Shown here: one piece after another, positions 920 to 46,541 of the stretch | Layout of the letters: the number at the start of each line of letters is the position of its first letter | How positions within the stretch are numbered: position 1 is the first letter of the stretch | From: Mobula hypostoma | Taxonomy: Eukaryota | NCBI RefSeq assembly: GCF_963921235.1 | Contig: NC_086108.1 | Span: forward strand, 66,280,001 to 66,344,000 | DNA: 64,000 nt | Direction of reading: 5' to 3' | The notes under the pieces: model-generated | What the model saw: only the letters and a program-made list of their open reading frames with translations | Databases searched by the model: none | Told to the model about the DNA's origin: nothing | Translations under genes and position numbers: made by a program

Positions 920-2095
920 TCACAGAGTCATATGGAAGCAGGCTCTTTGGCTCAGTTGGTCATTGCTGAAAAAGATGCCCACCGAAGCTAGTACCTTCAG
1001 CCTGTGTCTGGCCTACATCCTTCCAATCCATTCTTATCCATGTACTGCTCCATTTATTTTTAGATGTAGTGTCTTAGTCACTTCCTCTGAAAGTTCATCC
1101 CATATACAAACCACCCTTTAGGTGAAAAAATGTCCCTCAGATTGCTACTAAACCTTTGCCCTTTCACCTTAAATCTGCCCGCTGGTTCTTAATTCCCCAA
1201 CCCTGCCAAAAAGAATAAGTACATTAACCCTATCAATGCTCCTCATGATTTTATGCACCTCTATATGGTCATTCATTCTCTTACACTCCTGTCCTGCTCA
1301 ACCTCTCTCTCTAGCTCAGACCCTTGAATCCTGGCAACATCCTCATTAGGAGAGTGCGCGGCCTCTCCGGAGATTGATTTGTAAGTAGGATGCCGTGCAC
1401 AATTCTGATTTGATGGAGACAGACGTGGAAGCACGGAGGAACATCTGGAGAAACTTCTGAAATGCCCGGTTCGCTGCCACTGTGCGATCGAGAATCTCTG
1501 GAGGGGAAGGCCCCAAATCCTCGGCTTTGCCTGTTGCTGGCGGCCGGGGCTGGGGTCGAAGCACTCGGCAGAGATGGTGCTCGGTGCTCGGTGTCAGAGG
1601 GCTGGTCGGAGGTTCGAAGTTTTCGGATGGACTGAGAGTCGGACTGTGGTTGGGTGCTTCCAGGATGCTGCATCAGCAAGTTTGCGGCTCTGGAAGCTCA
1701 TGGCAGGGAGAGTTTTCTTCCTTCTACTGTCTGAGTGAGATGATGGGATTTTCGAGAGACTTTGAGATTTTTTTTTACTGTGCCCATGGTCTGTTCTTCA
1801 TCAAATTATGGTATTGCTTGCACTATTGTAACTATATGTTATAATTATGTGGTTTTTGTCAGTCTTGGTCTGTCTTGTGTTTCTGTGATATCACACTGGA
1901 AGAACATTGTATCATTTCTTAACACATGTATTACTAAATGACAATAAAAAGAGGAATGTATCTCCTCATAATCTAATCTAATAACCTAATTCATCTTCAC
2001 TGCACTCTTTCCAGCTTGATGCACCTTTCCTATTGCAGGGCAGCCAAAATTCAACAGAATACTCTAAGTGCACCCTCACCAATGCCCTGCACAAC
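920..2095 (-). mobile_element. Old CR1 LINE 3' fragment, split by the insertion at ~1345-1985
   Basis: Degenerate reverse-strand CR1 3' sequence on both sides (...aatcctggcaacatcctc | ...tcttcactgcactctttccagc...), homologous to younger CR1 3' ends in this window. Confidence 0.7.
1345..1985 (+). mobile_element. Non-coding retroposon-like insertion (SINE or non-autonomous element), family unassigned
   Basis: CpG-rich 5' half, AT-rich 3' half with AATAAA and an (AATCT)n tail; it interrupts a CR1 remnant. Confidence 0.6.
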
Positions 2096-2699
2096 TTTTC
2101 CAGCAGTATATTTGTACACACGTGAATTGCAGAACACTATTCTTAATGTATACAGTACATATTAAGTTTGGAATTCTATTAATTAAGTTAATCTTTACCT
2201 GAAATGTTCATCTCAATAACACTAGGTCAGTATGTTTGCTTTAACCCAGCTTTCCATAGCATTTTGTTGATTTTTTTTGTGTGGAAGTTCTTTTTAAGAA
2301 AAAAAAAGGTACTGAAACAACTGGCAATGGGATAAGTAGTGAAAGGGCAAAATAAACAAAATGTATTGAAGGAGATGAGGTTGATATGTGGGATTGTCAA
2401 AGCTGGTTAAGATATATTCACAAGAATGATCCAAAGAAAATTTAGATTGCATTCTAATTGTCTTCTTTTCTGTAAATATCCTAAATCAGTTTTCTTTTCA
2501 TCCATTACCAGATCCCAATGGCCCTAAATTTTCAAAGTGGACAGGACTATTTTTTAAACATAGCTGAGTCTGATAGTTTTCTTACATTATCCCACTGTAG
2601 CAGACACCTAAGGGTGTTCCATAATTACACCATTCCTTGGATTCCCACAGTCATTTCAGTAGTTGCAGTGATTCCTGCATGCATGTAGTATTTCCCATC

Positions 2700-2965
2700 T
2701 TGAGGGCGAAGGGAACAGATAATGGGAACATTGTTGTATATGTCCTGCCCTTTTAAGTCACAAACCGTCCAGATTCAGAAATACTTCTCAGTGTTTTTAT
2801 TGTTACATGGGTCAAAATCCTGAAAATCAACAATGGGATTACTTTCCACACATGGATTGCAGCTGTTCAAGAGGCTGGTTCCTCGCTACCTTCTTCAGGG
2901 CATTGTGGATAGGCAATGAATGTTAGGCTTGTTAGAGATGCCCAAATCCACATTTAAGCACTAAT
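2700..2965 (+). mobile_element. Old 3' tail of the LINE/SINE family seen at 41092-44300
   Basis: ggattgcagctgttcaagaggc...ggcaatgaatg...gatgcccaaatcc resembles 44180-44280. Confidence 0.6.
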
Positions 2966-3369
2966 AAAAAGAAGGCTCAGCTGTAATGTTCCCAGCGGGA
3001 TAAATGCTTCCAGATCCTGGAAAACTATTAGAGTCCTATTAAAGCTTGAAACTTCATCACATTACTGTCTGACAGTAGACTATTTTCAATGCTAATTAAT
3101 CGGTCTCTGATAGGCCTTGGCATGAAACCAGATTTCAGCAAAATTTCTGAGTGCTTATCAACACCACAGGAGCTGTTTTGTAATTGTTTCATCAGAATTA
3201 GACGCACTTGCAGAAACACAATTCCTGATACTTTCACACAGAATGAAATTTATTTTCCATATTAAAGTTGCCATTTGTGGCTGGTTGATCCCTTCATTAA
3301 TTATGTAAAGTAAAATAAGCGTAAGATATCTAGGTCAAGGTCATCTGCGCCTGAGAATACTGGAAGTGT

Positions 3370-3667
3370 GGGGTGGCACAGTGGCGTGGCGGTTAGCATA
3401 ACGCTATTACAGCGCCAGTTGTATGATAGCGTTCAATTTGAGCTGCTGTCTGTTAGAAGTTTGTATCTTGTCCCCATGACCACGTAGTTTCCTCCCACAT
3501 TCCAAAGATGTATAGTTAAGGGTAGTGAGTTGTGGGCATCCTGTGTTGGCACATGAACAGTTGTGGGCTGTCTAGCACAATCCTCTCCTGATTTGATTTG
3601 ATGCAAATAATGCATTTCACTGAATGTTTCAATGTTTTGATGTACATGTGACAAATATAATCCTATC
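3370..3667 (+). mobile_element. tRNA-derived SINE, V-SINE/HE1-like
   Basis: A-box TGGCGTGGCGG (3382), B-box-like GTTCAATT (3431), V-domain-like tttcctcccacattccaaagatgt, AT-rich tail. Confidence 0.75.
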
Positions 3668-7942: not shown

Positions 7943-10900
7943 AGGTTATATGTAAAAGTATGTGAATGGTGTAACTCATTTCATCACCATTTCCAATGTG
8001 TAGACCTAGATAAAAGTAAAAATGAAGACTAAATATTTATTCCCAGCTCTCCCACATTTTTCTTTCACTTAGTTTTTGGAAATACAAAAAATAACAGTGG
8101 TGATGAGCAAGTTTTCAATGAACCCGAGATGGCTACCTACCTGTTGAGATGCAGCAAAACATTTGATTTAGAAAAGTGCAGCACATGTTTCTTCAGAAAA
8201 GGAGAAAGACAGTTGTTAAAAAAGGCAGAAAATGGGGGAAAATCATGGGTTCATAACAGTGAGTACTGTGTGACAATAATCATAAATTCAGAAAAGCGGA
8301 AATGGCTGGCAACATCAGAAATATAGACGTGTTCGTTTGCACAAAAGATAACTGGCTGATGTTTACTGAATGAATTGAGCAGTATTTTGAAATGAGTGAT
8401 ATAGCCAATGAAATGCGAGTGCCAGTTTTGTTGAGTGCATTGTGTGGAAAAGCATACAATTTGTTTAGAAATTTTACTGCTTCAACCAAACCAGCAGAAA
8501 TGAGCTTTGCTGTTATCGTGAAATTAATGCAGGAACATTTAGAACCAAAAGTATTGATGATTGCAGAACATTTTAGGTTTCATATGCAGAATCAAAAGAC
8601 AGGGGAGTCCATTTCAGCTTATGTGGCTGAATTGAAGAGATTGTCTGAGTATTGGCTCTTCAGTGATGGGGTTAATGATGCACTGAGAGATTGTTTTGTT
8701 CATGGAATCTTAGAAAAAAACATTCAAAAATGGCTCCTAACTGAAGCACAACTCACATTTAATTGAAAACACTGTATCAATGTAAACAGCAGAGACACAA
8801 ACGAGTTGTAGCCAGGAATGAAACTAAGCATAAAGAAAATTGCAGTGCCTAAGCAGAAACTAGCCTAGTCAAACAAATTGTGCGACTGTTATAGCAATGT
8901 TACATATACACCAGACCAATTCAGGCAAAACTTACAGAAAATGCAACTAAGTAGGACACACACAAGGAGCATGTTGGGCAGACAAAAACAAATGGATTAC
9001 ACAGGAACGAGAAAAAGATAAAAAGTCAAGTTGCAGTTTCAAAAAAATCTGCATACTGTTGATGAAAAATCTGATAATGATGACAGTGGTGCAGGACTGA
9101 ATTGCCTTGAGATTTACAATGTGAAAACTATCAAGAGAGGAGTAATATGGCTTACTCCAAATTAATAAAAATAGAATTGGACACTGGATTGGCTGTTTAT
9201 TGTCATTCCATAAAATGAGTTTGCATGGCATTTCAGCGATACTGAAATGAAACCTGCAGCTATCCTACTAAGAACTTGAACGGGAGAAAGGTAACTTCTG
9301 TAGAAATGGCGTTCGTAACACTGAAGCATGGCAACCAACAAGCCACATTAGGCATGTACGTGGTAAAAACAGGAAGTCCAACACCGCGGTTGAGACAACT
9401 ACAACTTGATTGGAGATTCAGCCACCATTTGCATGGCACATCCCCTGCAAGAGAGTCAACTGAAAGTGAATTAAGAAAGGAATCAAAGCAAAGGCGTTGG
9501 AAAACTCAAACATATCAAGGGTACAATAGTGTTAAATGAAAATGTCACACCCACGTTTTCCAAAGCCTGTCCAGTTCCTTATACCAACAATGATAAAGTA
9601 ACCAGTGAGCTAGATTGCATGGAGGCTGAAGGAATTCTTTCCAAGGTTGAATGGTGCGCATGGGCAATATCAGTGCTCCCATTAGCTAAGAAGAATGGGT
9701 CTGTCAGCATCTGTGGAGATTTTAAGGTCATCATCAACCCAGTATTGAAAATAGATCAATACCCTCTGCCCAAGAGAGGATATCTTTGCAAAATTCTCTG
9801 GAAGGAAACACTTCAGCAATATGGGCTTAGCTGAGGCCTACCTACAGATGGAGATGGAAGAGGAATCCCAGATGTTTCTCACCATAAATACTCACAAAGG
9901 GCTTTGTCACTATAATAGGCTTACTTTTGGAGCATCATAGAACAGGTTTCTGCCAAACCTGGCTACTCTGCTCCACCCTCGAACTCATTACTACAGATCG
10001 GGAAGAAACGGCAATGGACAAAGCAGTGCAAGGTGGCTTTCTGAAAGGTAAAGGAAATGGTGATGTCTGACACTATTCACACATTATGGTCCATGTTGTC
10101 CAGTGAAGCTTGCCTGTGATGCCTTTCCTTATGGTATAGGTGCAGTCATGTCTCATGTTATGAGTAATGGAAATGAATGCCCACTTTTGGCTTTTGCATC
10201 ATGTTTCCTTACAACTGGAGAGAAAAATAAACACAAATTGACAGAGAGTTCCTGAGTCTGGTTTGGGGTGTAAAATTTTTCAACCAGTACCTGTATGGAG
10301 AGACTTTACCATCATTACTGACCATCAAGCCCTGATATCAATTTTCACTCCACAGAACGGTGTTCCACTAACAACAGCAGCACAAGTGCAAAGATGAGCT
10401 CTTTTTCTTGGAGGACACAATTACAATATTGAATTAAAGAAGGCAATTTATCACGGAAATGCTGATTGTCCCATTTACTCTTGGAAAATTAAATACTTGA
10501 AATATTTACAAAAGAGGACACTCCTTATGACATATTCTCCCTAATGCAAATTGAAAGTCTCCCTATTATGGCAGAGATTATCAAGAGGGAAACCAGAAAA
10601 GGTCTCAGGTCTACATGGTCACCCAAAATGGCTTGATGGTGCAGCAGAAATTTCAGTTCCCTATTGTTATCAGTGCCGAGATGAGCTTGCCCTTGACGGG
10701 GGTTGACTTATTTTGGGATTGAGGGTTCTTGGCTGAGAGTTGAAGTGCTGGAGGAACTATATGCCTGTCATCTAAGCATGGTGAAAATGAAAAAAAAGTG
10801 TTGGCTCCAAGCTTTGTCTGGTGGCTTGGGATAAGTGAGCAGATGGAGCAGCTTGGCATGCACTGGGATGCCAACATGCCCAGAAGATGCCAAGAACAGC

Positions 10901-11660
10901 ATCTCTCCATCTCTGGGAATGGCCTACATTGCCCTGGCAGAGGATTCATGTAGATTTTACTGGACCATTCATGGGCACAAATTGCTTGGTATCAGTGGAT
11001 ACAGCTACAAAGTGGACAGAAGTGCTCCTAATAGTCTCCACTGCAGCCTCACACACTGATGATTTGTTGAGAAACCTCTTCTCAAGGACTGGTGTTCCAG
11101 AACACTTAGTCTATGGCAATGGATCACAGTTTATTGAAGAACAATTTCAGCCATTCCTGAAAATGAATGGGATAAGACATATTACATCTGCACCATACCA
11201 CCCAGCTACAAATGGCTTGGAGGAGAGATCTGTCCAGAGTCTAAAGAATGCACTGCAAGCAATACCAGCAGAACGTGCCACACTGACACTGAATCAGAAG
11301 CTCACCAGTTTCTTCCTTGTGTATTACAATGCAGCACATTCCACAACCAACAACTGATCAGCAATGCCGTTCCTGGATTGTCCCTTGCACTCACACTTGC
11401 ATCTGCTCAAACCCAATCTCAGAATTTCACTCCTGGACAAGCAGTCCTGGTGAGGGACTGCAGAAGTGATCAAAAGTGGGTACTTGGAAAGATTAAGAAC
11501 AGAACTGGACCACTCTCCTACACAGTGAAGATTGTGTCCCTGATGTCATCTGGAGATGACACAGCGATCTGCTGAGAAGAGCAGAACCAATTGTTGGAGA
11601 AGAAAGGTGCCCAGAGCTGTCAGAACCACTTCCTTCAGTCCCAGGGTTAACTCTTACCAC
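7940..11660 (+). mobile_element. Decayed Ty3/Gypsy LTR retrotransposon (partial 5' LTR 7940-8096, PBS-like 8097-8108, gag-pro-RT-RNaseH-integrase pseudo-ORFs)
   Basis: Gag-like (QKTGESISAYVAELKRL...LRDCFV), RT (KKNGSVSICGDFK...DQYPLP), integrase (WQRIHVDFTGP...APYHPATNGLEER); LTR ends taaca followed by gtggtgatgag. Confidence 0.92.
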
Positions 11661-14430
11661 TGTAGGTTTGCGCAAATAAAAATGGCAGAAGCATTTTATG
11701 TTTAAGAAAAACTGTAGCAACTCATTTATTGTACTCCAAACACTAAACACTGAACACAAAGCATCGTACAAGTACTTTGCATACTTACATCATCACATCA
11801 GAACAGCCCCTTAAAGTGAAGCTTGGTGGCTGTGAATTATGCGTACATTTCCACCCCCTAGATTACTGGCTCTCCAGAATTTACCGAAACGGCAGTGTGA
11901 GCCTGTCTGGAGCTCAGACGAACGGCCCAGCTTGAGTCATATGTCCTATGGGCGGAGGAGTAGCAGGGGTATGTTGACACACTCATGGTCAAGTTGTGAC
12001 AGCAGGGCCATGATAGTAGAGTCCTCCAAATCTTGATGGGCCGATTGAAGGTGATCTACTGAAGTACATTCAGGTTTTCCCTTCTTATCCATGATAAAAG
12101 TCCTTTTTCTCTCTCTTTCAAAACATGGTATTGGCCATCTTAAGGAGGCCCAAGGAGATGCTGGTGTGCATCATGGTGGACAAAAGCAAATGAGGCAGAA
12201 TGTAGATCAACAGGAACCCAAGGGCGCTGTACGCCATGATGGGAGGTAGGAATAGGTGCAAAGGAATTGAATTTACTTAGGAGGGTGGAACGCTATTGAA
12301 AGGCTGATCAGGGAGTTGTGGCATCAGGAATAATATCACCTGGCACTCGTAACAGCTGCCTGTATACCAGTTCAGCTGTGGATGACAGCAGGTCCTCTTT
12401 TGGAGCAGTTCTGAGTCCCAGAAGGTCCCGCTGGAGACGATCGTGCCAACGCTCATCCGTCAGGGAAGCCTTTAAGGAGTGGTGAAACCTTTCGCATAAG
12501 CCATTGGACTGCGAGTGATATGCCATGGGGTGAGGTAGCCTAACGCTGAGGTCCCGCCCATTGCAGCCCAGAGGTCTGATATGAATTGCGGACCACACGG
12601 CCTGACGAAATTCAGATGGGATGCCAAACCGAGAAACCCTGGTGCTGATGAACGCCAGAGCCACATCTGTGGCTGTTGTTGATGCTAGAGGTATGACCTC
12701 TGGCCATCTGGTGGCATGCTCCGCAATGCTAAAGAAGGGTGTGAAACAGTTGGAGGGGGCAAGAGGATCAACATGGACCACATTGACATGGTCATACCAT
12801 CGCTCCGGACCTCAAAAGTGCCTGGATATAATGGTTAATTTTGCCACTGACACTCCACACAGGCTGCCATCCAATCACGCATTGTCCTTTCTAAGGCCTT
12901 ACCACACAAACTTTAGTGCAACCAGTTTCTGTGAGGCCTTCTGGCCCAGATATGAGGGGCTATGTATGGAGTCAAAAACAGTCCACCTCCAGTCTGTGGG
13001 CACGATGGGACGAGGGCAACCGATTGAGACATCACACAGGAGAGAAAACCCAGCTTCCCTGAACTTAATGCCAGCCAAGCCCAGGCCTATAACTGATAGG
13101 CCTGTAAGCCTGGACCTCTGTAGCTTGGTCAGCTGCCATGCCAACATAGTCAACCCCTACGTGTATGGCCTCAATGGCTGGCTGTGAGAGGCAATCAGAC
13201 GCAGCATTGTTTTTCCCCGTGATGTGTTGTATATTGATTGTGAACTCTGAAATGTAGGCCAATTGGCATTGCTGCTATGCAGACCAAGGGTCTGATATTT
13301 TGGCCATCATGTGCACTAAGGGTTTGTGGTCAATGAGTGTTGTGAAATGGTGACTCTTTGGAAGAAAACGAAAATGGCGAACAGCCAGATTGAGACCGAG
13401 AAGCTTACAGTCAAACGTGCTGTACTTCTTTTTTGGGAGACAGAGCTGCCGGCTGAAGAAGACGAGTGGCTGCCACACACCTCTGACCAGGTATTCATGC
13501 ACAGCATCCATAGCACAGTCTGAAGCATCAGTAGCAATGGTTGGGGAGGGGTGTGCCAGTTGGGTCCCGTTGGAAAGAACTTGTTTGGTATCATCGCATC
13601 TCCACTGACCAATCAAGTACTTAGGGATATTGCCTTTAAGTGCACTATACAGAGGGAGTATAATGAAATGGTGATAGAAATTCACCATGCCCAAAAACAC
13701 TTCTAGTTTTTCAGTAGTGCGGGGTGATCAGAATTCCAAAATAGTGGCTACTCTTGATGGGAGGGGTTTTGCACCTTCTGCAAAGATGCAATGTCTGAGA
13801 AAGTCAATGGTTGAAAACCCAAAGTGTCATTTAGCAGTGTTAATAATCGATCTGCTTTGGCTTAAGCACTCAAAAAGTGTGCAGAGATAAGATACTTGTT
13901 GGATTGGGATGCACTGGCGACAAGTATGTCATCCAGGTAAATGAAAAGAAACCCTGTCTTTTATACAGAGTTCATCAGCCATTGGAAAGTCTATGTTGCA
14001 TTTTTCAGTCCAAATGGCATGCACAGAGACTCAAAGAGGCCAACTGGGGTTATCACAGCCGTTTTGGGAATGTCCTTCCAGCACACAAGCATCTGATGGT
14101 AGGCCCTAACTAGATTAACTTAGGAAAAAGTTAACTTTCTGGCTAAACTTGCCAAAAAGCCCTGGATGTGTCGGACCGGGTAACGATCAGGTTGGTGGCC
14201 TCATTGAGGTGTCGGTAATCGCCACATTGGCAGCAACTACCATCGGGCTTAGGGACCATTTGGAGGGGTGAAGCCCAGGTGTAATTGAACCCATGTTGGC
14301 AAACTCAACCTTCGTGGTTACCAGCTTTTCTGGTCCAGTCTACGAGCGTGGGCATGGACTGACGGGCCAGATGTAGATGGACCCCTGTCGCACAGGAAGC
14401 GACGCTCTGAATGGGCGTTTTGTAATGAGC
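11661..14430 (-). mobile_element. Second Ty3/Gypsy element, opposite orientation (3' LTR 11661-11847, PPT 11848-11862)
   Basis: TG...CA-bounded LTR next to a purine tract; integrase (TRWPEVIPL, YHSQSNGLCERFH), RNase H (TDASD...DHKPL), RT remnants (FLGMVNFY). Confidence 0.9.
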
Positions 14431-25054: not shown

Positions 25055-25345
25055 TATTATGTTTTGTAACTCCAAAACTAATTGAAAGAAAAAAATGGGA
25101 GAGCTGAGGATAAACATGTACTCTTCATTTTTACATTTAGTGAGGCTACTGTGGTGGTGTGATGATATATGCTATTCAAGTACTTTTACATATAACCCAT
25201 AATGAATTATGTAAATAAACAAAGAATGGTTGAGCAAATATATTTAAAATATTACTGAAATATTAATTATACAACATTCCTCCCTGCTAAGCAATAAACT
25301 CCAACTCAATATAGAGTGCATCTCAATTTATAAACAGTATATAAA
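25055..25345 (-). mobile_element. Gypsy 3' LTR (25055-25276) plus PPT, same family as 7940 and 40259
   Basis: Reverse complement matches the LTR at 40259-40420 and 44572 onward; PPT agcagggaggaa precedes TGTTGTAT. Confidence 0.8.
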
Positions 25346-38170: not shown

Positions 38171-40787
38171 CTGAGACCATGGCTTCCATTACATTCTTAG
38201 ATGCTTTTCTTATCAGTCCCTCTATACCTTGACCTCACTTACGGTCTACAACTGGAAAGCCCTGAATCCCCACTTCTTTGCCCAACCTTTAATCACCAGT
38301 TATCTCTTCACCAAACATCATAATATGCTTAATTCCCTCTGCACCTCTTTAAAAAAAAAACCTGGGCAAGTCATCTCTCTTTTAAGCCCTGTCCACTGTA
38401 CTATTCCACCATCCAAAGATAGCTTGCGAAGTGAACACCTCAAACTGAATGAAATAGAAGGCAGCATTGAACTGCATGTTTCACTATCTATGATCACCAC
38501 CCAGCTGGCTATCGGGGAGGGCTTCCACTTTAAAACAAAGCAGTCCTGCTCGGGTTGGTGGTAGTGCGCGTGGTGGAGAAGCCTGCTATCTTAGCAGGCT
38601 CCTTCTTGAATGAAATGCAATCACTTCATTTTGAATACAGATCAACAATGTCCTCATGGTGGAGCAAATTGTAAGATATATTTAATACCTTGAACTTCAG
38701 CTCTCATGGAACACTTCATGTAGAGGTTCATCCGGAGATCAGCTTGACAGCCTTCCTCTAGCATTGGCAAGAGGTGGCACCTTTCAATGAGGGTGCTTTT
38801 ACTGAAGCAAAAATGACTCACCCATTGTTCTTCACTCAGGGTTAGTTGGATAGGTAATCTCACTCACCAGCAGGAGATCAGATCGCTGAATCACCAACTT
38901 CCATTTTCCTCTGCCCTCTTCCAGAAGACTATCCTGCTTGCATGACTGGTCACAATTGGTAAAATCATGACTGGCCTGAACTGAAGATGCATTTTGCTGC
39001 TGAGTGCTAATCGTACAGGATTATGAGGGGGAATTAACTGGAGGGCATGCATCCATAATAGTAGTCTTGCATGCTGATTGTATTCTGTCTGCTCTCCTTT
39101 CATTGCACATTCTATCACTGGCACAGTGTCTGGTAAATGGATAAACAGGAACCATTTTAGTAAGTGCAAAAGAGAAGTACTATTAAAAAGACAAGAGTAA
39201 TTGGTGGGATCAGTCTGTCTAAGGCTATTTATACTTTATAATATGAGATCAAGATGTTATTATTCATTGAACAGACACATACAATTCTGGTGCATTATAC
39301 TCAGAACACATCTGAGAAACATCCTGATACTGGATTGGGCTAAGCTTTCGGGCACTCATGAAGCATGAATTAAGCCCTATATATACAGTAAATGAGTGGC
39401 ATGTGAGAATAGATCAACATAGGAAAAGATTATTTCCAGGCACAATCTTTATACAGGCTCATTTCTTTGATATGATGTTCAGATGCTCAGATTTGATTAC
39501 AGAGTCTGGCTCTAATTGTATGTTTACAGAGCCCAGCACACAAGAGTTGTGAAATCTGTCGGCACCAAAATCCGCATGTGAGGTTATGTTGCTCTCAGAA
39601 GCTGAGAAGGCCTGAAACCTCAATGAAATGCAATGTGTAACAAATGCCCTGTGCTCATTTGTATCACCTGTAGTGAGTTTCACATTATTAGTTCATATTA
39701 CCCACACCTTTTCATTGTGACCAAAAGCACCTTCTCCCTCCTAAAATCAAATGACCATTACTGGAATTTGACTGGTTTCCATATTGATCACCGTTGCTCC
39801 TTCCATTGCATTTGCCATTTCTGCCATGTGGAAGCAACCATTTCACAGAGTTCAGTAGATTAAACCAAATTATATTTTGAAACTTGGCTCGTGAAATGTG
39901 AGTCTTTTTCGCTAAGCTGAGGATAAGATTTCCAGAATGTTTAAGGTTGAAGTTCTCAAACTGACTGAAACACAGAACTTGGCTTCATCTATTTATCGGT
40001 TCACTTTCTGTAAATATTGATAATTAGGAATATTTATTATCAGCAATCAGCAACTATCCATTTTTTCACATTATATTCCCTTGAAACCTATTTTAAATCA
40101 ACTCATGTTAGTTGGAAACTTTGGAAAAGTGATTAAATGTTCCAAATGCTTGCTGGTGAATATCTTTGAAATAATAATTGAAAACTTGAGGCTCATGTAT
40201 TAAACAGTGCTTAATGCACCTATTGTCTTCAATCGATAATGTTTAGAGTGTTGCAGTGTGTTGTGCATTTAATATTTCAGTAGTATTTGAGCAATATTGT
40301 AAATATTCTTTTATTAAACATTGTTTGTTTACATAATTATGGGTTATATATAAAAATGCATGAATTGCATATGTCATGATGCTGCCATGTGATAATGTTT
40401 TCAAGTTACAAAACATAACAGTGATGATGAGGAAGTTTTAAATGAACCCAAGATGACTACTTATCTGTTGAAGCGGAACAAGACCTGTGTTGTAAAATGG
40501 TGCAGCGAAATGATTGAATTTTTAAAAACATCACAGCACATGTTTCTTCAGAAAGGAAGACACGATTGAGTTAAAAAAAAGCAGAAAATGGAAGAATTCA
40601 AACATCTAAACAGCAAGTACCAGGTGATAATCAATAAGTAGAAATAGCTGCAGAATTGACGGTTTGATTGCATAACAGTTAATTGGATTTTACATGCTGA
40701 ATGGAGTGAACAGCATTTTTGAAGCAAATTAAATAGTCAGTGAGAAACAAGTACCAATATTACTGAGTGCATTGGGTTTAAAGGCAT

Positions 40788-41048
40788 ATGCACCTTCCCT
40801 AGATCAAAAAGCACACCATAGAAAGAAGGAATAGGAAAAGAAAGAGGATGATGACATAAATGCTGTGGAAATGGAAGAGGATAAACAAGACCCAATTTCT
40901 CAAGAAATTGGCAAATCCAGGAATACAGACAAGAAAGAGGGAGGTGAGAAAAAGAAAATCAAGAAGTTGAAAAGGAGAGAGAGAGGAGGAAGCTGGGACT
41001 GGGTGTGAAGCAAGGATAGAAACAGATCCAGAGAAAAAAAGCTGAGAA
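40788..41048 (+). pseudogene. RBM25: Processed (intronless) fragment of RNA-binding motif protein 25 mRNA, decayed
   Basis: Translates APSLDQKAHHRKKE*EKKEDDDINAVEMEEDKQDPISQEIGKSRNTDKK / EKENQEVEKERERR / SKDRNRSREK, versus recalled RBM25 NAPSQESDSHPRKKKKEKKED...EDINAIEMEEDKRDLISREISKFRDTHKK...EKERQEIEKERRER...NKDRSRSREK. Confidence 0.85.
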
Positions 41049-41091
41049 AAAAAAGTGACCAGAGCCATTTCCTGTAGTTTCAAACTCAACT

Positions 41092-44000
41092 GTGGGAAGA
41101 TTTGGTGTAGTGGTAATTACCACTGAATCAGGAATCCAGAGAACCAATTATACACTGGGGACATAAATTTGAATCCCACCATGGCAGATGAATTTGAATT
41201 CAATAAAAATATCTGATGACCACAAAATCATGTTTATTGCCGTAAAAAAAAACATCCGGTTTACTAACGCCCTTCAGAGGAGGAATCCTGCTGTCCTTAC
41301 CTGGCCTGGCGTATATGTGACTCCAGACCCACAGCAATGTGGTTGACTCTTAATGCCCTCTGAAATGGCCTAACAAGCCATTCAGTTTTATCCAACCACT
41401 AAAAAGAAAATAATAAGGAATAAATCCAGATGAATAACCCGGCATTGACCTAGGCACTGGAATCGACAATGGCAAAACCAGCCCTGTTTACCCTGCAAGG
41501 TCCTTCTTACTAACATCTGGGGACTTGTGCCAAAGTTGGGAGAGCAATCCCACAGACAAGCCAAGCAATAGCCTGACATAGTTGTACTGACAGAATCATA
41601 CATTACTGTTAACATTCCAGACTTCATCATTATTCCTGGGTATGTACTGTCATGCCGGCAGGACAGATCTAACAGAGGTGGTGGCACAGTGGTATACAGT
41701 AGAGAGGGAGTTACCCTGGCAACTCTCAACATCAACTCTGGACCCCATGAAGTCTCATGGCACCAGGTTAAACTTAGGCAAGGAATCCTCCTGCTCGTTA
41801 CCACGTAACGCCCTCCCTCAGCTGATGAATCAGTACTCCTCCATGTTGAGCAGCACTTGGAGGAGGATTGAGGATGGCAATGAACAGAATGTACTCTGAT
41901 TGGGGGACATCAATGTCCATCACCAGGAGTGGCTCAGTAATACCACCACAGACCGAGCTGGTCAGGTCCTACTGGACATAGCCACTAGTTTGGGACTACA
42001 GCAGGTGGTGAGGGAGCCAACAAGAGGAAAAAAAAACACACCTGCCCTCATCTCACCAACCTGCCAGCCACGGAAGCATCTGTCCATGACAGCATTGGTA
42101 GAAGTGACCACCGCACAGTATTTATGGGGACTAAATTCCATCTCCACATTGAAGAAACCCTCCACCGCATTGTGCGGCACTACCACCATGCCAAATGGGA
42201 TAGACTTTGAACAGATCTAGCAGCTCAAGACTGAGCATCTATGAGGTGCTGCGGGCTATCAGCAGCAGAATTGTATTCAACTACAATCTGTAACCTCATG
42301 GCCCAGTATATCCTCCACTCTAACATTACCACCAGGCCAGGGGATCAACCCTGGTTCAATGAAGAGTGCAGGAGGGCATGCCAAGAACGACACCAGGCTT
42401 ATATGAGGTGTCTCCATGGTGAAGCCACAATACAGGACTACTTGCATGCCAAGCACTATAAGCAGCAAGTAATAGACAGAGCCAACGCATCAGATCCAAG
42501 CTCTGTAGACTTGCCACATCCAGCTGTGAATGGTGGTGGACAATGAAACAACTCACTGGAGGAGGCGGCGGCGGCTCCACAAATATCCCCATCCTCAATG
42601 ATAGAAGAGACCAGCACACCTGTGTAAAAGATGAGGCTAAGGAATTTGCAAAAATCATCAGTCAGAAGTGACGAGTAGATGATCAAGCTCGGCTCCTCCA
42701 GAAGTCTCCAGCAATCCAGATGTCAGTATGCAGCCAATCTAATTCACTCCACATGATATCATGAAATGGCTGAAAGCATTAGATACTACAAAGGCTATGG
42801 GCCCAGACAAAATCCCAGCAATAGTCCTGAAGATTTGTGCTCCCAGAACTTGCCACGCCACTAGCCAAGCTGTTTCAGTATAGCTACAACACCAGCATCT
42901 ATCCAGCAATGAGGAAAGTTGCCCAGATACATCCTGTACACAAGAAACAACCCAGCCAATTACCACTATCAACCAGCTCTCAATCATCAAAGTAATGGAA
43001 GGGGTCATCAACAGTGCTATCATACAGCACCTACTCGGCAATAACCTGCTTACTGATGCCTAGTTTGGGTTCTGTCAAGGCTACTCAGCTTCTGACCTCA
43101 TCATCTCCTTGGTCCAAACATGGAACAAAAAGCTAAATTCCAGAGGTGAGGTGGGAGTGATAGCCCTCGACATCAAGGCAGCATTTGAACAAGTATGGTA
43201 TCAAGGTTCCCAAGCTAAAATGGAGTCAATGGGAATTAGGGGGGGAAACCCTCTGCAGTTGGAATCATACCTGACGCAAAGGAAGATGGCTTTGGTGGTT
43301 GCAGGTCCATTATCTCATCCACAGGACATCACTGCAGGAGTTCCTCAGGGAAGTGTCCTAGGATCAACCATCTTCAGCTGCTTCATCAATGACCTTCCTT
43401 CCGTCATAAGGTCAGAAGTGGGGATGTTCACAGATGTCTGCACAATGTTCTGCACCATTCGTGACTCCTCAGACAGTGAAGCAGTTTATAACCAAATGCA
43501 GCAGGACCTGAACAATATTCAGTCTTGGGCTGAGAAGTGGCAAGGAATATTCGAGCCAAGCAAGTGCCAGGCAATGACCATCTCCGACAAGGCTCTAACC
43601 ATCATCTCTTGACATTCAGTAGTATTGCCATCACTGAATCCCCTACTATCAACATCTTGGGGATTACCATTGACAGAAAACCGAACTGGTCTAGTCATAT
43701 AAAAACCGTGGCTACCAGAGAAGATCAAAGGCTAGGACTCTTACAGCATGTAACTCAACCCCTGACTCTTCAAAGCCTGTCCACCATCGACAAGGCAGTA
43801 ATGGAATACTTGCCGCTTGCCTGGATGAATGCCGCTCCATCAACACTTTAGAAGTTTGACACCATCCAGTACAAGGCAGCCCACTTGATTGGTTCCCCTT
43901 CCACAAACATCCAATCCCTTCACCATCGATGGACAGCTGCAACAGTGTGTATTGCAGCAACATACCAAAGTTCCTAAGGCAGCACCTTCCAGGCCACGAC

Positions 44001-44300
44001 CACTATCATCTGGAAGGACAAGAACAGAAGATACTTGGGAACACCACCACTTGAAATCCCCCTCTAAGTGACTCATCATGCTGACTTGAAAACATAATCG
44101 CCATTCCTTCATTATTGCTCAGTCAAAGTCATGGAATTCCCTCCCTAACAGCACTGTAGGTGTACGTATCTACATCTCAGGGACTGCAGCGGTTCAAGGA
44201 GGCAGCTCATCATCACCTTCTCAAGGGCAACTAGCGGTGGGCAATAAACATTGGCTTAGCTGATGATGCCCACATCCCATAAATGAATAAATAAAATAAA
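41092..44300 (+). mobile_element. Apparently full-length CR1/L2-group LINE without ORF1, with a tRNA-like 5' head; decayed APE + RT
   Basis: A-box-like TGGTGTAGTGG (41103), B-box-like atttgaatccc (41167); APE from ~41500 (TNIWGL, GDINVHH); RT (ALDIKAAFE, AGVPQGSVLG..IFSCFINDL); A-rich tail. Confidence 0.88.
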
Positions 44301-44725
44301 AATTCCTACAACCACCACTGAGGAAGCCTGAGATTGTTTCACAGCCACAAGTCTCACCTGCCAAGCAGGATGATCCCCCTTGCCAGGAAAGATGTTATCA
44401 CGCAAGAGTGAGAAAGCCTCCACAATGATTAAATCCTTAAGCCTGAATGGGAAAACTTAAAATTTACTATGCTGTGGATGTCTGTATGGTATTTTTATTA
44501 TATAGTATATCGTGTATGTAGACAAAATGCATCCTGTATTGAGTTGGAGTTCATAGCTAAGCAGAGAGAAGTATGTGTGTGTATTTAACATTTTAATAGT
44601 ATTTGAGTAAAATTTTAAATATGTTGTATGATTAAGCATTCTTGTTTGTTTATGTAATTCATTACAGGTTATATGTAAAAATAAGTAAATTGCATACATT
44701 TTGACGCTACCACGTGATAAGTGTG

Positions 44726-45272
44726 CGTCTATTTCCTGAGGAGACTGAGGTCCTTTAACATCTGCCGGACGATGCTGAGGATGTTCTACGAGTCTGTGGT
44801 GGCCAGTGCGATCATGTTTGCTATTGTGTGCTGGGGCAGCAGGCTGAGGATAGCAGACACCAACAGAATCAACAAACTCATTCGTAAGGCCAGTGATGTT
44901 GTGGGGATGGAACTGGACTCTCTGACGGTGGTGTCTGAAAAGAGGATGCTAAGTTGCATGCCATCTTGGTCAATGTCTCCCATCCACTACATAATGTACT
45001 GGGTGGGCACAGGAGTACATTCAGCCAGAGACTCATTCCACCGAGATGCAGCACTGAGCGTCATAAGAAGTCATTCCTGTCTGCAGCCATCAAACTTTAC
45101 AACTCTTCCCTCAGAGGGTCAGACATCCTGAGCCAATAGGCTGGTCCTGGACTTATTTCATAATTTACATATTACTATTTAACTATTTATGGTTCTATTA
45201 CTATTTATTATTTATGGAGCAACTGTAACGAAAACCAATTTCCCCCAGGATTAATAAAGAATGACTATGACT
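44726..45272 (+). mobile_element. Rex1/Babar LINE 3' fragment inserted in the Gypsy 3' LTR
   Basis: YFLRRLRSFNICRTMLRMFYESVVAS; (ATGACT)n tail. Confidence 0.92.
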
Positions 45273-46541
45273 CACTTAAAATAAGACATAGTTCGATTTG
45301 CATCTCTCATTTCCTTGTTTTTCTTCCAATTAATTTAATGTTTTAAAGTGATAAAACACAACTCATGGGCAGTACAGATTTATGACATGTGATAACAATG
45401 CTGTTTCAAGTTTTGCTTTTGAACTGATTGGCTTGCAGTACCTTGTGTAAGAAAGCAACATTCTGCCCTGCTGTACTCTCCATAATAGAGCGTTTCACCT
45501 TTTTACTTAAAGATTTAAGCAATTCTTGTATGCCTGTATTTATCTTTTCTGTTGGTATCAACAAGGATTTTAAGTTCAGTTCATTTAATATTATGTCGTA
45601 TTATAGAGACATAGCTCTATAACATTGTGTTTTCTCCTTTGATTGCTCACTCTAACAAGTCAATCAGGCTCTGAAACACTAGAAGACAGCCAGAGGGAAA
45701 ACCAATCACACATCTTCCTCTGGTTTATCCTTGCCAAATGAAGGCTGGGCATGTCTCCTGCTCCACACTGTATAGTACCACATATTGCTGACACAACTTG
45801 TAGTGCAACTTGTGGCCCACACTGAGGAATTATTCTTAATCACTTCAGCTTAGTCCATGGGAGTGAGGTGCTGCCAAGTTACGGCAATTGTAGAGTCATC
45901 CCACTAATGCAATGATTTAGCTAGCCTGCTTTTCAAAAACACATCTCATGCCAGTAGCTGCCACACCATGAATAAGTCCTACCAGCAGGCTGGGTGCAGT
46001 GATATAATTAAAATCTAATGTAAATATACCAAGGAACATTGCGTTAATATTTTTCCTTTTTATTTTATCAAAGTGTAGTAGTCTAAGTGGAATCCATAGT
46101 TCATAATGCAAAAGCCTTGCATCAGCTGAAGTTGCAAAATTCTTCAAGTACTCTCAGCTAGTAGGGGTTTTAGAATGTACATTTAACATTCAATATCAAT
46201 AATTATTCACCCTTTCTGATGTACTGTATCATTAACATCAAATGTGTATTTGATTGGTCATATGCAGGAAATCCCAGATGGAAGGCAAAGCTCAAACTAA
46301 ACCTTCTGTTTAGTTGGTCTGTTTGGACAGTACTTCTGCAAGTTACATTTTTAGACACATTGGTGCAAGATTAGTTGATGTAGTGCACCTCACAATATGC
46401 AACACAGGTACTGCACACAACAGGTAGATATTTTCCAGAATCCTTTATCCTGTTATATCTTGTTATAAGCATATGCTGAGTACAGTAGAGTAATGATAGT
46501 TGTCTGTTTGTAACCTCAATGAATGATTGAGATTAATAATA

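Follow-up and report, generated by a model that had tools for sequence, protein, structure and literature searches.

LTR-mediated retrocopies and the mechanism behind them have been published (Tan et al. 2016, PMC5131818); by that account, they comprise a partial, intronless mRNA placed between discontinuous parts of an LTR retrotransposon, with microsimilarity at both template switches, sense-strand orientation and neither poly-A nor target-site duplication (TSD), and their secondary retroposition is possible. The vertebrate counts given there are a few loci per genome (zebrafish 5/7, chicken 4/10, human 3, mouse 8), and the maize element Bs1, as described in the same source, carries exons captured from three donor genes within an LTR element, in one to five copies that have their switch points in common and arose with secondary retroposition. 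In an insect, Parnassius glacialis, 433 intron-poor processed pseudogenes of one host gene, RPLP2, are reported in association with two Gypsy families and are recent, ~3 Ma per the authors (PMC10713551). For maize gene capture, a system of plant siRNA and many donors, Muyle et al. (10.1101/777037) put forward the idea that host-gene fragments borne by transposable elements could cross-talk with the host gene via small RNAs.

In the window, i.e. the whole 64,000-nucleotide stretch of Mobula hypostoma DNA analyzed here, we studied a Gypsy element carrying a piece of the host gene rbm25. The family to which it belongs resembles the retrocopies of PMC5131818 in each of the features listed above, and it resembles Bs1 in its captured exons, in switch points common to the copies and in secondary retroposition. 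In contrast to the handful of vertebrate loci, and to Bs1 with its three donors, at least 994 copies stem from one capture of one donor, hundreds of times more copies than Bs1. Compared with the RPLP2 copies, which are similarly intron-poor and drawn from one host gene, the switch points, microhomologies and in-frame protease junction of the rbm25 family are mapped, and common switch points are not described for RPLP2 in the parts of PMC10713551 that bear on this comparison; in contrast to the plant siRNA system of maize with its many donors, the rbm25 family has one donor and is known here from DNA sequence. The capture mechanism is thus already known, with a scale that is unusual for a vertebrate. 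No description of an rbm25-Gypsy family was found in the literature searched (supplements, Repbase and Dfam lay outside the search and may hold the family), and the main text of a manta-ray genome preprint mentions RBM25 0 times. The features are as follows, with rbm25 exons numbered according to this analysis:

8060..11660, + strand: sister Gypsy copy of parental type, retaining remnants of gag, protease, RT, RNase H and integrase (tblastn with P0239)
40259..40420, + strand: 5' LTR (TGT...ACA), sharing 78% identity with the 3' LTR across 160 aligned columns and ~80-90 nt the shorter of the two
40422..40432, + strand: primer-binding-site-like motif adjoining the 5' LTR, position and motif equal in the 8 loci passing the alignment threshold (46 fetched)
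40433..40788, + strand: leader and broken gag remnant, ~residues 11-53 of the 1319-aa Gag-Pol, frameshifted (tblastn with P0239)
40787..40789, + strand: private secondary deletion junction of gag and rbm25 exon 7, 1-2 nt overlap
40788..40849, + strand: rbm25 exon 7, 3' part, 85% identity to G000:C1:99819315-99819255
40850..40933, + strand: rbm25 exon 8, complete, 84.5% identity to G000:C1:99813200-99813117
40934..41031, + strand: rbm25 exon 9, both ends, with ~216 nt of the RE/RD repeat deleted between them (one block matches the mRNA as far as 935, the next begins at 1152)
41032..41050, + strand: head of rbm25 exon 10, leading into the family's 3' switch point, here decayed (mRNA block 1152-1223 spans the exon 9|10 junction)
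41051..41095, + strand: Gypsy pol 3' tail, part 1, continuous with the tail in family copies, e.g. L010 and L013
41096..44301, + strand: nested non-LTR retrotransposon with RT and A-rich end (Pfam RVT_1 at 43064-43609, E 8e-17)
44302..44558, + strand: Gypsy pol tail and 3' UTR, part 2, 69-81% identity to family copies
44559..44571, + strand: polypurine tract (PPT), read from the sequence; purine tracts also lie 5' of the 3' LTR in family copies
44572..45363, + strand: 3' LTR, split by a nested repeat
44728..45272, no strand assigned: nested repeat fragment inside the 3' LTR, with 2 more copies within the window at 89-91% identity

The element order and coordinates of the original prediction hold, as do its translations, which were found in the sequence; beyond the nested non-LTR retrotransposon at 41096-44301, the Gypsy tail picks up again at 44301. 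The carrier shows the Ty3/Gypsy marks of TG...CA LTRs, a primer site and a PPT, the short TSD being seen in the family: a 5-bp duplication with 4-5 letters agreeing was present in 5 of the 7 chimeric loci in which both ends could be read. The putative duplication of the window copy agrees at only 3/5 letters. With the nested 44728-45272 element excluded, the two LTRs are identical in 125 of 160 columns, and at the outer edge of the 5' LTR the contigs of other copies stop at 40258-40259, where the adjoining sequence is unrelated or resembles a PPT. The insertion site of the window copy is common to two other organisms. Both the sister copy and the parents are colinear on the 1319-aa Gag-Pol (gag-protease-RT-RNase H-integrase), with Pfam RVT_1 and rve (the latter at 10839-11354 of the sister copy, E 6e-13); one gag homologue bears the name 'K02A2.6-like'. 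The leader and gag remnant of the window copy, with a frameshift at ~40718, is 65% identical to sister 8083-8456; this match ends at 40788/8456 and family copies resume at sister 11596, confirming that ~3.1 kb of the sister is missing at the insert.

The insert at 40788-41050 matches the host rbm25 mRNA over three splice junctions, with E values of 1.5e-52 and 3.6e-16 (blastn vs. the spliced mRNA) that were unchanged when low complexity was masked with DUST. Against the unspliced gene, located on G000:C1 with AG/GT ends at 10/10 exons used, the insert falls into four blocks in three exons spaced 6.1 and 2.4 kb apart, bearing out the suggestion of several exons, and the last mRNA block additionally crosses a 1.1-kb intron. 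Its translation is identical to gar RBM25 at 31 of 46 residues (E 1e-11, blastp). A PDB sequence search with the retrocopy gave no match, and Pfam found no domain in P0003 or P0001.

The insert had been read as a 260-bp piece fused in frame to gag. A one-off capture straight into gag would account for the window copy reading in frame from gag into rbm25 exon 7, but just 33 codons are open there, with a stop on either side (40733-40831), the 3' junction is that of the family, and family copies have ~560 nt more rbm25 and a whole gag-protease upstream. In addition, the gag junction, with its 1-2 nt overlap, is unique among the 40 top genome hits (0/39 others span it), and 26/26 fetched loci aligning there run on into gag instead; no run's contig bridges this junction, which is therefore read from the assembly. 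We find a one-off fusion scarcely credible. The window copy is a dead, further-deleted remnant of an old Gypsy family; this copy has lost the rest of gag, protease and ~560 nt of captured mRNA including the RRM at 40787..40789, through a deletion that presumably arose in or after this insertion.

That family is a large non-autonomous Gypsy family with the layout LTR-gag-protease-rbm25-pol tail-LTR, in which rbm25, with eight splice junctions and the RRM (Pfam RRM_1 in two other family copies), replaces RT, RNase H and integrase. The captured piece is ~1.07 kb of mRNA joined 3' of protease, starting in exon 3 and stopping ~28 nt into exon 10, with both ends in the coding region, introns absent, and no poly-A or TSD around it. 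In 42/59 loci (one fetched twice), the match to the mRNA begins no more than 5 nt from one common point, which lies 10 nt before the exon 3 end. At this 5' switch, parent (GGATGA-TGCCACA-GCAGT), host (ACTCC-TGCCACA-ACTGT) and chimera (GGATGA-TGCCACA-ACTGT) have 7 nt in common; at the 3' switch in exon 10, host (AAAAG-GAGAAGAAA-AGGG) and parent (TTGTTA-GAGAAGAAA-GGTG) have 9 nt in common. The description of the 3' junction as a purine run resembling both partners was hence correct. One pair of switch points holds for the family but is not universal, since the 3' junction of copy L143 differs.

These data, together with the sense orientation and lack of poly-A, support the double template switching between Gypsy RNA and spliced rbm25 mRNA that had been suggested, and we surmise that a single switch of this kind and back, followed by amplification in trans, is very probably the origin of the family. 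A processed pseudogene made by a LINE, or cDNA patched into a DNA break, might instead have landed in a Gypsy copy, been trimmed by deletions and amplified as a hybrid; LINEs are abundant in the window, and a similar end product is expected after trimming. However, a LINE would leave the mRNA 3' end intact and followed by poly-A, with a TSD around the copy, and this was not found; both ends lie in the coding region on host-Gypsy microhomologies with ~2 kb or more of pol lost precisely between them, and this route needs two extra deletions that land on those microhomologies. We consider it improbable. The RNA intermediate was not observed, and microhomology may also come from DNA repair with a cDNA patch.

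Rather than a possible one-off locus, the window copy is one of at least 994. At ≤2 mismatches, the genome holds 994 matches to the chimeric 5' junction, 447 to the chimeric 3' junction and 2110 to the parental junction, whereas reversed control patterns gave 0; chimeras make up about one third of junction-bearing copies. None of 20 parental loci came within 5 mismatches of either chimeric pattern, and in a protein search all 150 of the 4981 candidates that were scored matched (150/150). The junction pattern was present in 16/57 sampled loci (95% interval 17-42%), and the total is probably 2,000-3,500 family sites, a rough extrapolation because the sampled loci are the best-scoring hits. Segmental duplication, rather than retrotransposition, could be invoked for one pair, L045 and L047, at 98.7% identity, but all other pairs are ≤87% identical, and the copies lie on many contigs with TSDs of their own; it is refuted for all but this sampled pair, and as the source of the family its likelihood is negligible.

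Among 57 copies, 49 span at least 450 of 603 nt, with 86.5% identity to the host and 81% to one another. They form a star-shaped tree in which the branch to the host is short. The copies are ~10% decayed (private decay 10.4%), probably an underestimate with the best-scoring hits as the sample. Private changes numbered 1510 nonsynonymous, 101 stop and 543 synonymous vs. 1480, 117 and 556 expected, a dN/dS-like ratio of 1.05 across 48 copies. The copies examined decayed neutrally; this ratio and the 33 open codons of the window copy speak against a functional retrogene with an intact reading frame under purifying selection. The two LTRs of an element were 70-82% identical among parents (8 of 20 loci) and 69-87% identical among chimeras (12 of 26 loci), so parents and chimeras are of similar age. 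A rate of 7e-10 per generation is given in PMC10587355.

We thus propose that, once in an ancestral germ line, a Gypsy reverse transcriptase would have jumped from its own RNA to an rbm25 mRNA, fully spliced and packaged alongside, and then returned, using the 9-nt match in exon 10 and the 7-nt match at the exon 3 end, such that ~1.07 kb of mRNA took the place of RT, RNase H and integrase. With its LTRs, primer site and PPT retained, the chimera could have been copied in trans by enzymes of the parental family, probably in one burst. Its purine-rich 3' part would have been deleted repeatedly during and after this burst, with neutral decay of every copy examined thereafter; the window copy would then have lost most of gag, protease and the RRM by one private deletion, received two nested insertions and become inactive.

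A possible addition to this template-switch origin would be that the captured piece was an advantage rather than cargo, either because it was translated as part of an in-frame Gag-protease-RRM fusion or because its RNA helped with export, packaging or evasion of small-RNA silencing, the host being unable to silence the element without harm to rbm25, an essential splicing-factor gene; a polymerase-less parasite would in this way have reached about a third of its family, its purine-rich 3' part shed and its RRM part kept. In line with this, Gag-Pol stays in frame across the 5' junction in 30/40 callable copies (56 examined), a short subfamily is in frame into the same tail in 9/12 copies, and of the 23 host-copy differences common to ≥60% of copies, 20 are synonymous (the other three being one host-side change, where the shark protein has the copies' residue, and two that are a deletion breakpoint). 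However, an in-frame junction is a 1-in-3 chance each time; longer forms keep the frame into the tail in 7/26 copies (16/38 callable overall, 57 examined), and frame conservation is weak as a sign of selection once the short subfamily is counted as one event. That amino-acid changes were not fixed agrees with a burst shortly after the capture (host and commonest copy base differ at 12/86 4-fold sites vs. private decay of 10.4%), deleted derivatives without host sequence likewise multiplied, and maize capture brought no copy-number gain in the data cited from 10.1101/777037. We regard such an advantage as unlikely. The family allows a vertebrate test of whether a transposon that captures an essential gene is thereby protected from small-RNA silencing. 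In a search for proteins joining the Gypsy linker to RBM25, 0/236 fetched proteins matched the linker and none of the best 150 representatives started before query residue 53; one candidate was a frog RBM25 model. In one presumed RNA run, for which contigs were searched, no listed piece bridges a chimeric junction. Among the sequencing runs listed as containing the window copy none was RNA, a result that speaks neither for nor against its transcription.

In a vertebrate, a single captured mRNA piece can thus be expanded by LTR-mediated retroposition into a repeat family numbering about a thousand copies or more, compared with the handful of loci in published vertebrate cases. Such copies could be useful as insertion markers in comparisons of related species, and they can mislead rbm25 annotation and RNA-seq mapping. 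A search with the RBM25 C-terminus gave only four host exon hits among 9 candidates, and a Pfam PWI search for rbm25 matched two other genes instead, which we take to be SRRM1 and PRPF3. The IFRRF segment is absent from the insert, as had been noted, but this is no deletion: host exons join without it, and it is missing from gar, bowfin, reedfish and paddlefish RBM25 and present in one opossum and one elephant sequence. Host rbm25 has a small exon of 48 nt in common with a shark protein and not with the bony-fish proteins examined, as would befit a cartilaginous fish, and the copies preserve as a fossil a single ancient isoform of rbm25 that includes this exon.

The insert at 40788-41050 in the degraded Gypsy copy (40259-45363) is a spliced piece of rbm25, as the original prediction had it. 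Using the C-terminal part of fish RBM25 as query, we found the host rbm25 gene on G000:C1, a contig of the host assembly, and delimited ten exons, with AG/GT ends at all (exon numbers are those of the present analysis). The insert peptide matched gar RBM25 (E 1e-11), and the insert matched the spliced host mRNA with E values of 1.5e-52 and 3.6e-16, the same with low-complexity masking on or off. Three splice junctions are crossed, exons 7/8, 8/9 and 9/10, with introns of 6.1, 2.4 and 1.1 kb skipped, and in exon 9 about 216 nt of RE/RD repeat have been deleted. The IFRRF segment, noted earlier as absent from this copy, is likewise absent from the host gene and from the bony-fish RBM25 proteins compared; a depth-450 contig from a presumed RNA run, consistent with a host rbm25 transcript, also spans the exon 7/8 junction without it. 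Between exons 3 and 4 the host gene has a 48-nt exon (G000:C1:99832633-99832586), included in the captured mRNA, which occurs in one shark RBM25 protein and is absent from the compared bony-fish, frog and mammal proteins.

The predicted order of LTR, gag, insert and tail is present in the sequence, bounded by two LTRs:

40259-40420, 5' LTR, sharing 125 of 160 aligned columns with the 3' LTR, nested repeat excluded
44572-45363, 3' LTR, carrying the nested repeat, with 125 of 160 columns matching the 5' LTR

This LTR alignment, together with a gag remnant alignable to the sister Gypsy copy (8060-11660) as far as 40788/8456 and a Gypsy tail that is uninterrupted across the two sides of a 3.2-kb non-LTR insertion with RT, argues for LTRs, gag remnant and split tail being parts of one element, as proposed, although only 3 of 5 letters agree in the element's target-site duplication.

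The window copy belongs to a large family. With the insert as query, all 40 candidates scored (best 40 of 364) were matches; with a protein query from one family copy, so were all 150 scored (best 150 of 4981), and a translated family copy matched named RBM25 proteins with E down to 1e-62. A typical fetched copy runs from gag-protease into about 560 nt of rbm25 beyond that in the window, then the window segment or a shorter form, pol tail and LTR. The mRNA match starts at one position, give or take 5 nt, in 42 of 59 loci (one of which was fetched twice), 10 nt short of the end of exon 3, and in long forms it stops about 28 nt into exon 10, so that the captured piece holds eight splice junctions; it includes the RRM (Pfam RRM_1). 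On the 1319-aa Gag-Pol, the 5' switch maps at about residue 416, with protease (LDTG 307) before it and RT (YLDD 594) after it, and the 3' switch maps in the tail, beyond the integrase core. Of 18 loci surveyed, chimeric and parental, 7 chimeric ones could be read at both ends, and 5 of these have 5-bp target-site duplications with 4-5 letters agreeing, the expected trace of integrase-mediated insertion. As to individual loci, L137 has the 5' junction and RRM part tandemly repeated and L003 has the junction region three times over; L045 and L047 (paired with L137 and L139, respectively) are 98.7% identical, probably by recent segmental duplication.

Hundreds of copies have the same two microhomologous switch points around a spliced, sense-strand mRNA piece. 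Parent and host have TGCCACA in common at the 5' switch (13/18 letters if extended) and GAGAAGAAA at the 3' switch. RT, RNase H and integrase are lost from the chimera while cis elements are kept. From established retroelement biology, we surmise that: 1) rbm25 mRNA would have been co-packaged with Gypsy RNA; 2) reverse transcription would have switched template twice, from Gypsy RNA to rbm25 mRNA and back; and 3) the chimera was presumably mobilised in trans by the parental family. With up to 2 mismatches allowed, genome-wide counts are 994 for a 24-nt pattern spanning the chimeric 5' junction, 2110 for the parental pattern and 447 for the chimeric 3' pattern, against 0 for reversed controls; chimeric and parental patterns did not cross-match among sampled loci. 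Since the 5' pattern is satisfied by no more than 16 of the 57 chimeric loci sampled, the true number must exceed 994; 2,000-3,500 is an estimate, not a count. The chimeric copy L143 (G000:C67:49966400-49974400) re-enters pol about 170 nt upstream of the family's junction, a position suggestive of a second switch that involved chimeric and parental RNA. Five parental-type loci (L120, L124, L128, L132, L134) lack most of the integrase region through a shared deletion, and its rejoining point is the purine run at which the rbm25 switch took place; this run therefore looks like a recurrent switching point.

The capture had been thought to be fused directly to gag. A 111-nt query centred on 40788 recovered the window itself, and none of the 39 other top matches crossed the junction (best 40 of 924 candidates scored); 26 of 46 fetched loci could be aligned at this gag position, and all 26 run on into gag. 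The window's gag fusion is thus a secondary event, private to this copy, the family junction lying after protease, where it is in frame with spacing kept in 30 of 40 callable copies (16 of 56 uncalled). At the window's junction gag and rbm25 overlap by 1-2 nt; the fused reading frame extends over 33 codons with a stop at either side, and upstream of it gag is frameshifted.

Chimeric copies are independent insertions that then decayed neutrally. Most of exons 3-7 is spanned by 49 of 57 copies, with 86.5% identity to host and 81% among copies, and their tree is a star, with terminal branches near 0.1, a host branch of 0.037 and good support for 2 of 47 inner branches. In 48 copies, with 105 of 603 sites left out as CpG or shared, private changes are neutral: the dN/dS-like ratio is 1.05, and stops reach 0.88 of the number expected. 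Differences from host common to copies comprise 20 synonymous and 3 non-synonymous changes; one of the latter is host-side and two lie at a deletion breakpoint, so no amino-acid change is assignable to the element before the burst. At 4-fold sites the host and the commonest copy base differ at 12 of 86, vs. a private decay of 10.4%, which fits a burst shortly after capture, selection being also compatible. We consider it improbable that the captured rbm25 piece drove the spread. Among loci picked on exons 7-10, 25 of 29 retain most of the upstream RRM-coding part; exon 8 is missing from the majority of those picked on exons 3-7. In a short subfamily, exon 7 reaches the pol tail within about 57 nt and 9 of 12 copies preserve the frame, compared with 7 of 26 among longer forms. 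Purine-repeat slippage explains this erosion pattern without selection.

LTR-pair divergence is about equal in parents and chimeras. Single contigs of organisms C and E, from sequencing runs, extend 44 letters across the flank-LTR junction with a flank about 7% different, and one organism E contig lies over the 3' half of the insert at single-copy depth; this provides a lower bound on age. The rbm25 part draws dozens of contigs per site in organisms B, C and E. Three derived residues common to copies and host, lacking in a hexanchiform shark protein, would set an upper bound. A contig of organism E leaves the rbm25 insert and covers 27 letters of the nested non-LTR element (41096-41122), below the 31-letter rule applied, so that this nested insertion may also be older than the split.

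The family is real and well supported as an LTR-mediated retrocopy of a kind already known. Of the features given in PMC5131818 it has flanking parts of one LTR element, lack of introns, a partial mRNA without poly-A, microsimilarity at the switch points and secondary retroposition; as to co-transcription from the LTR, none of the contigs listed for one presumed RNA run bridges a chimeric junction. The same paper gives secondary amplification of maize Bs1 to 1-5 copies, and PMC10713551 describes a butterfly in which RPLP2 has 433 copies associated with Gypsy. No description of an rbm25-carrying Gypsy family turned up in the papers searched. The scale of amplification is unusual for a vertebrate.

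Elsewhere in the window, a 703-nt inverted repeat (4081-4782/5338-6039, 99% identical, 555-nt spacer) is a recent fold-back duplication or an assembly feature. On the minus strand, 25057-25321 is another LTR-like piece of the same Gypsy family and may be a solo LTR. A different sequence at 11660-14430 truncates the sister Gypsy copy; it has ORFs on the minus strand (12308-12811 and 13275-13727) and is perhaps a second LTR element.
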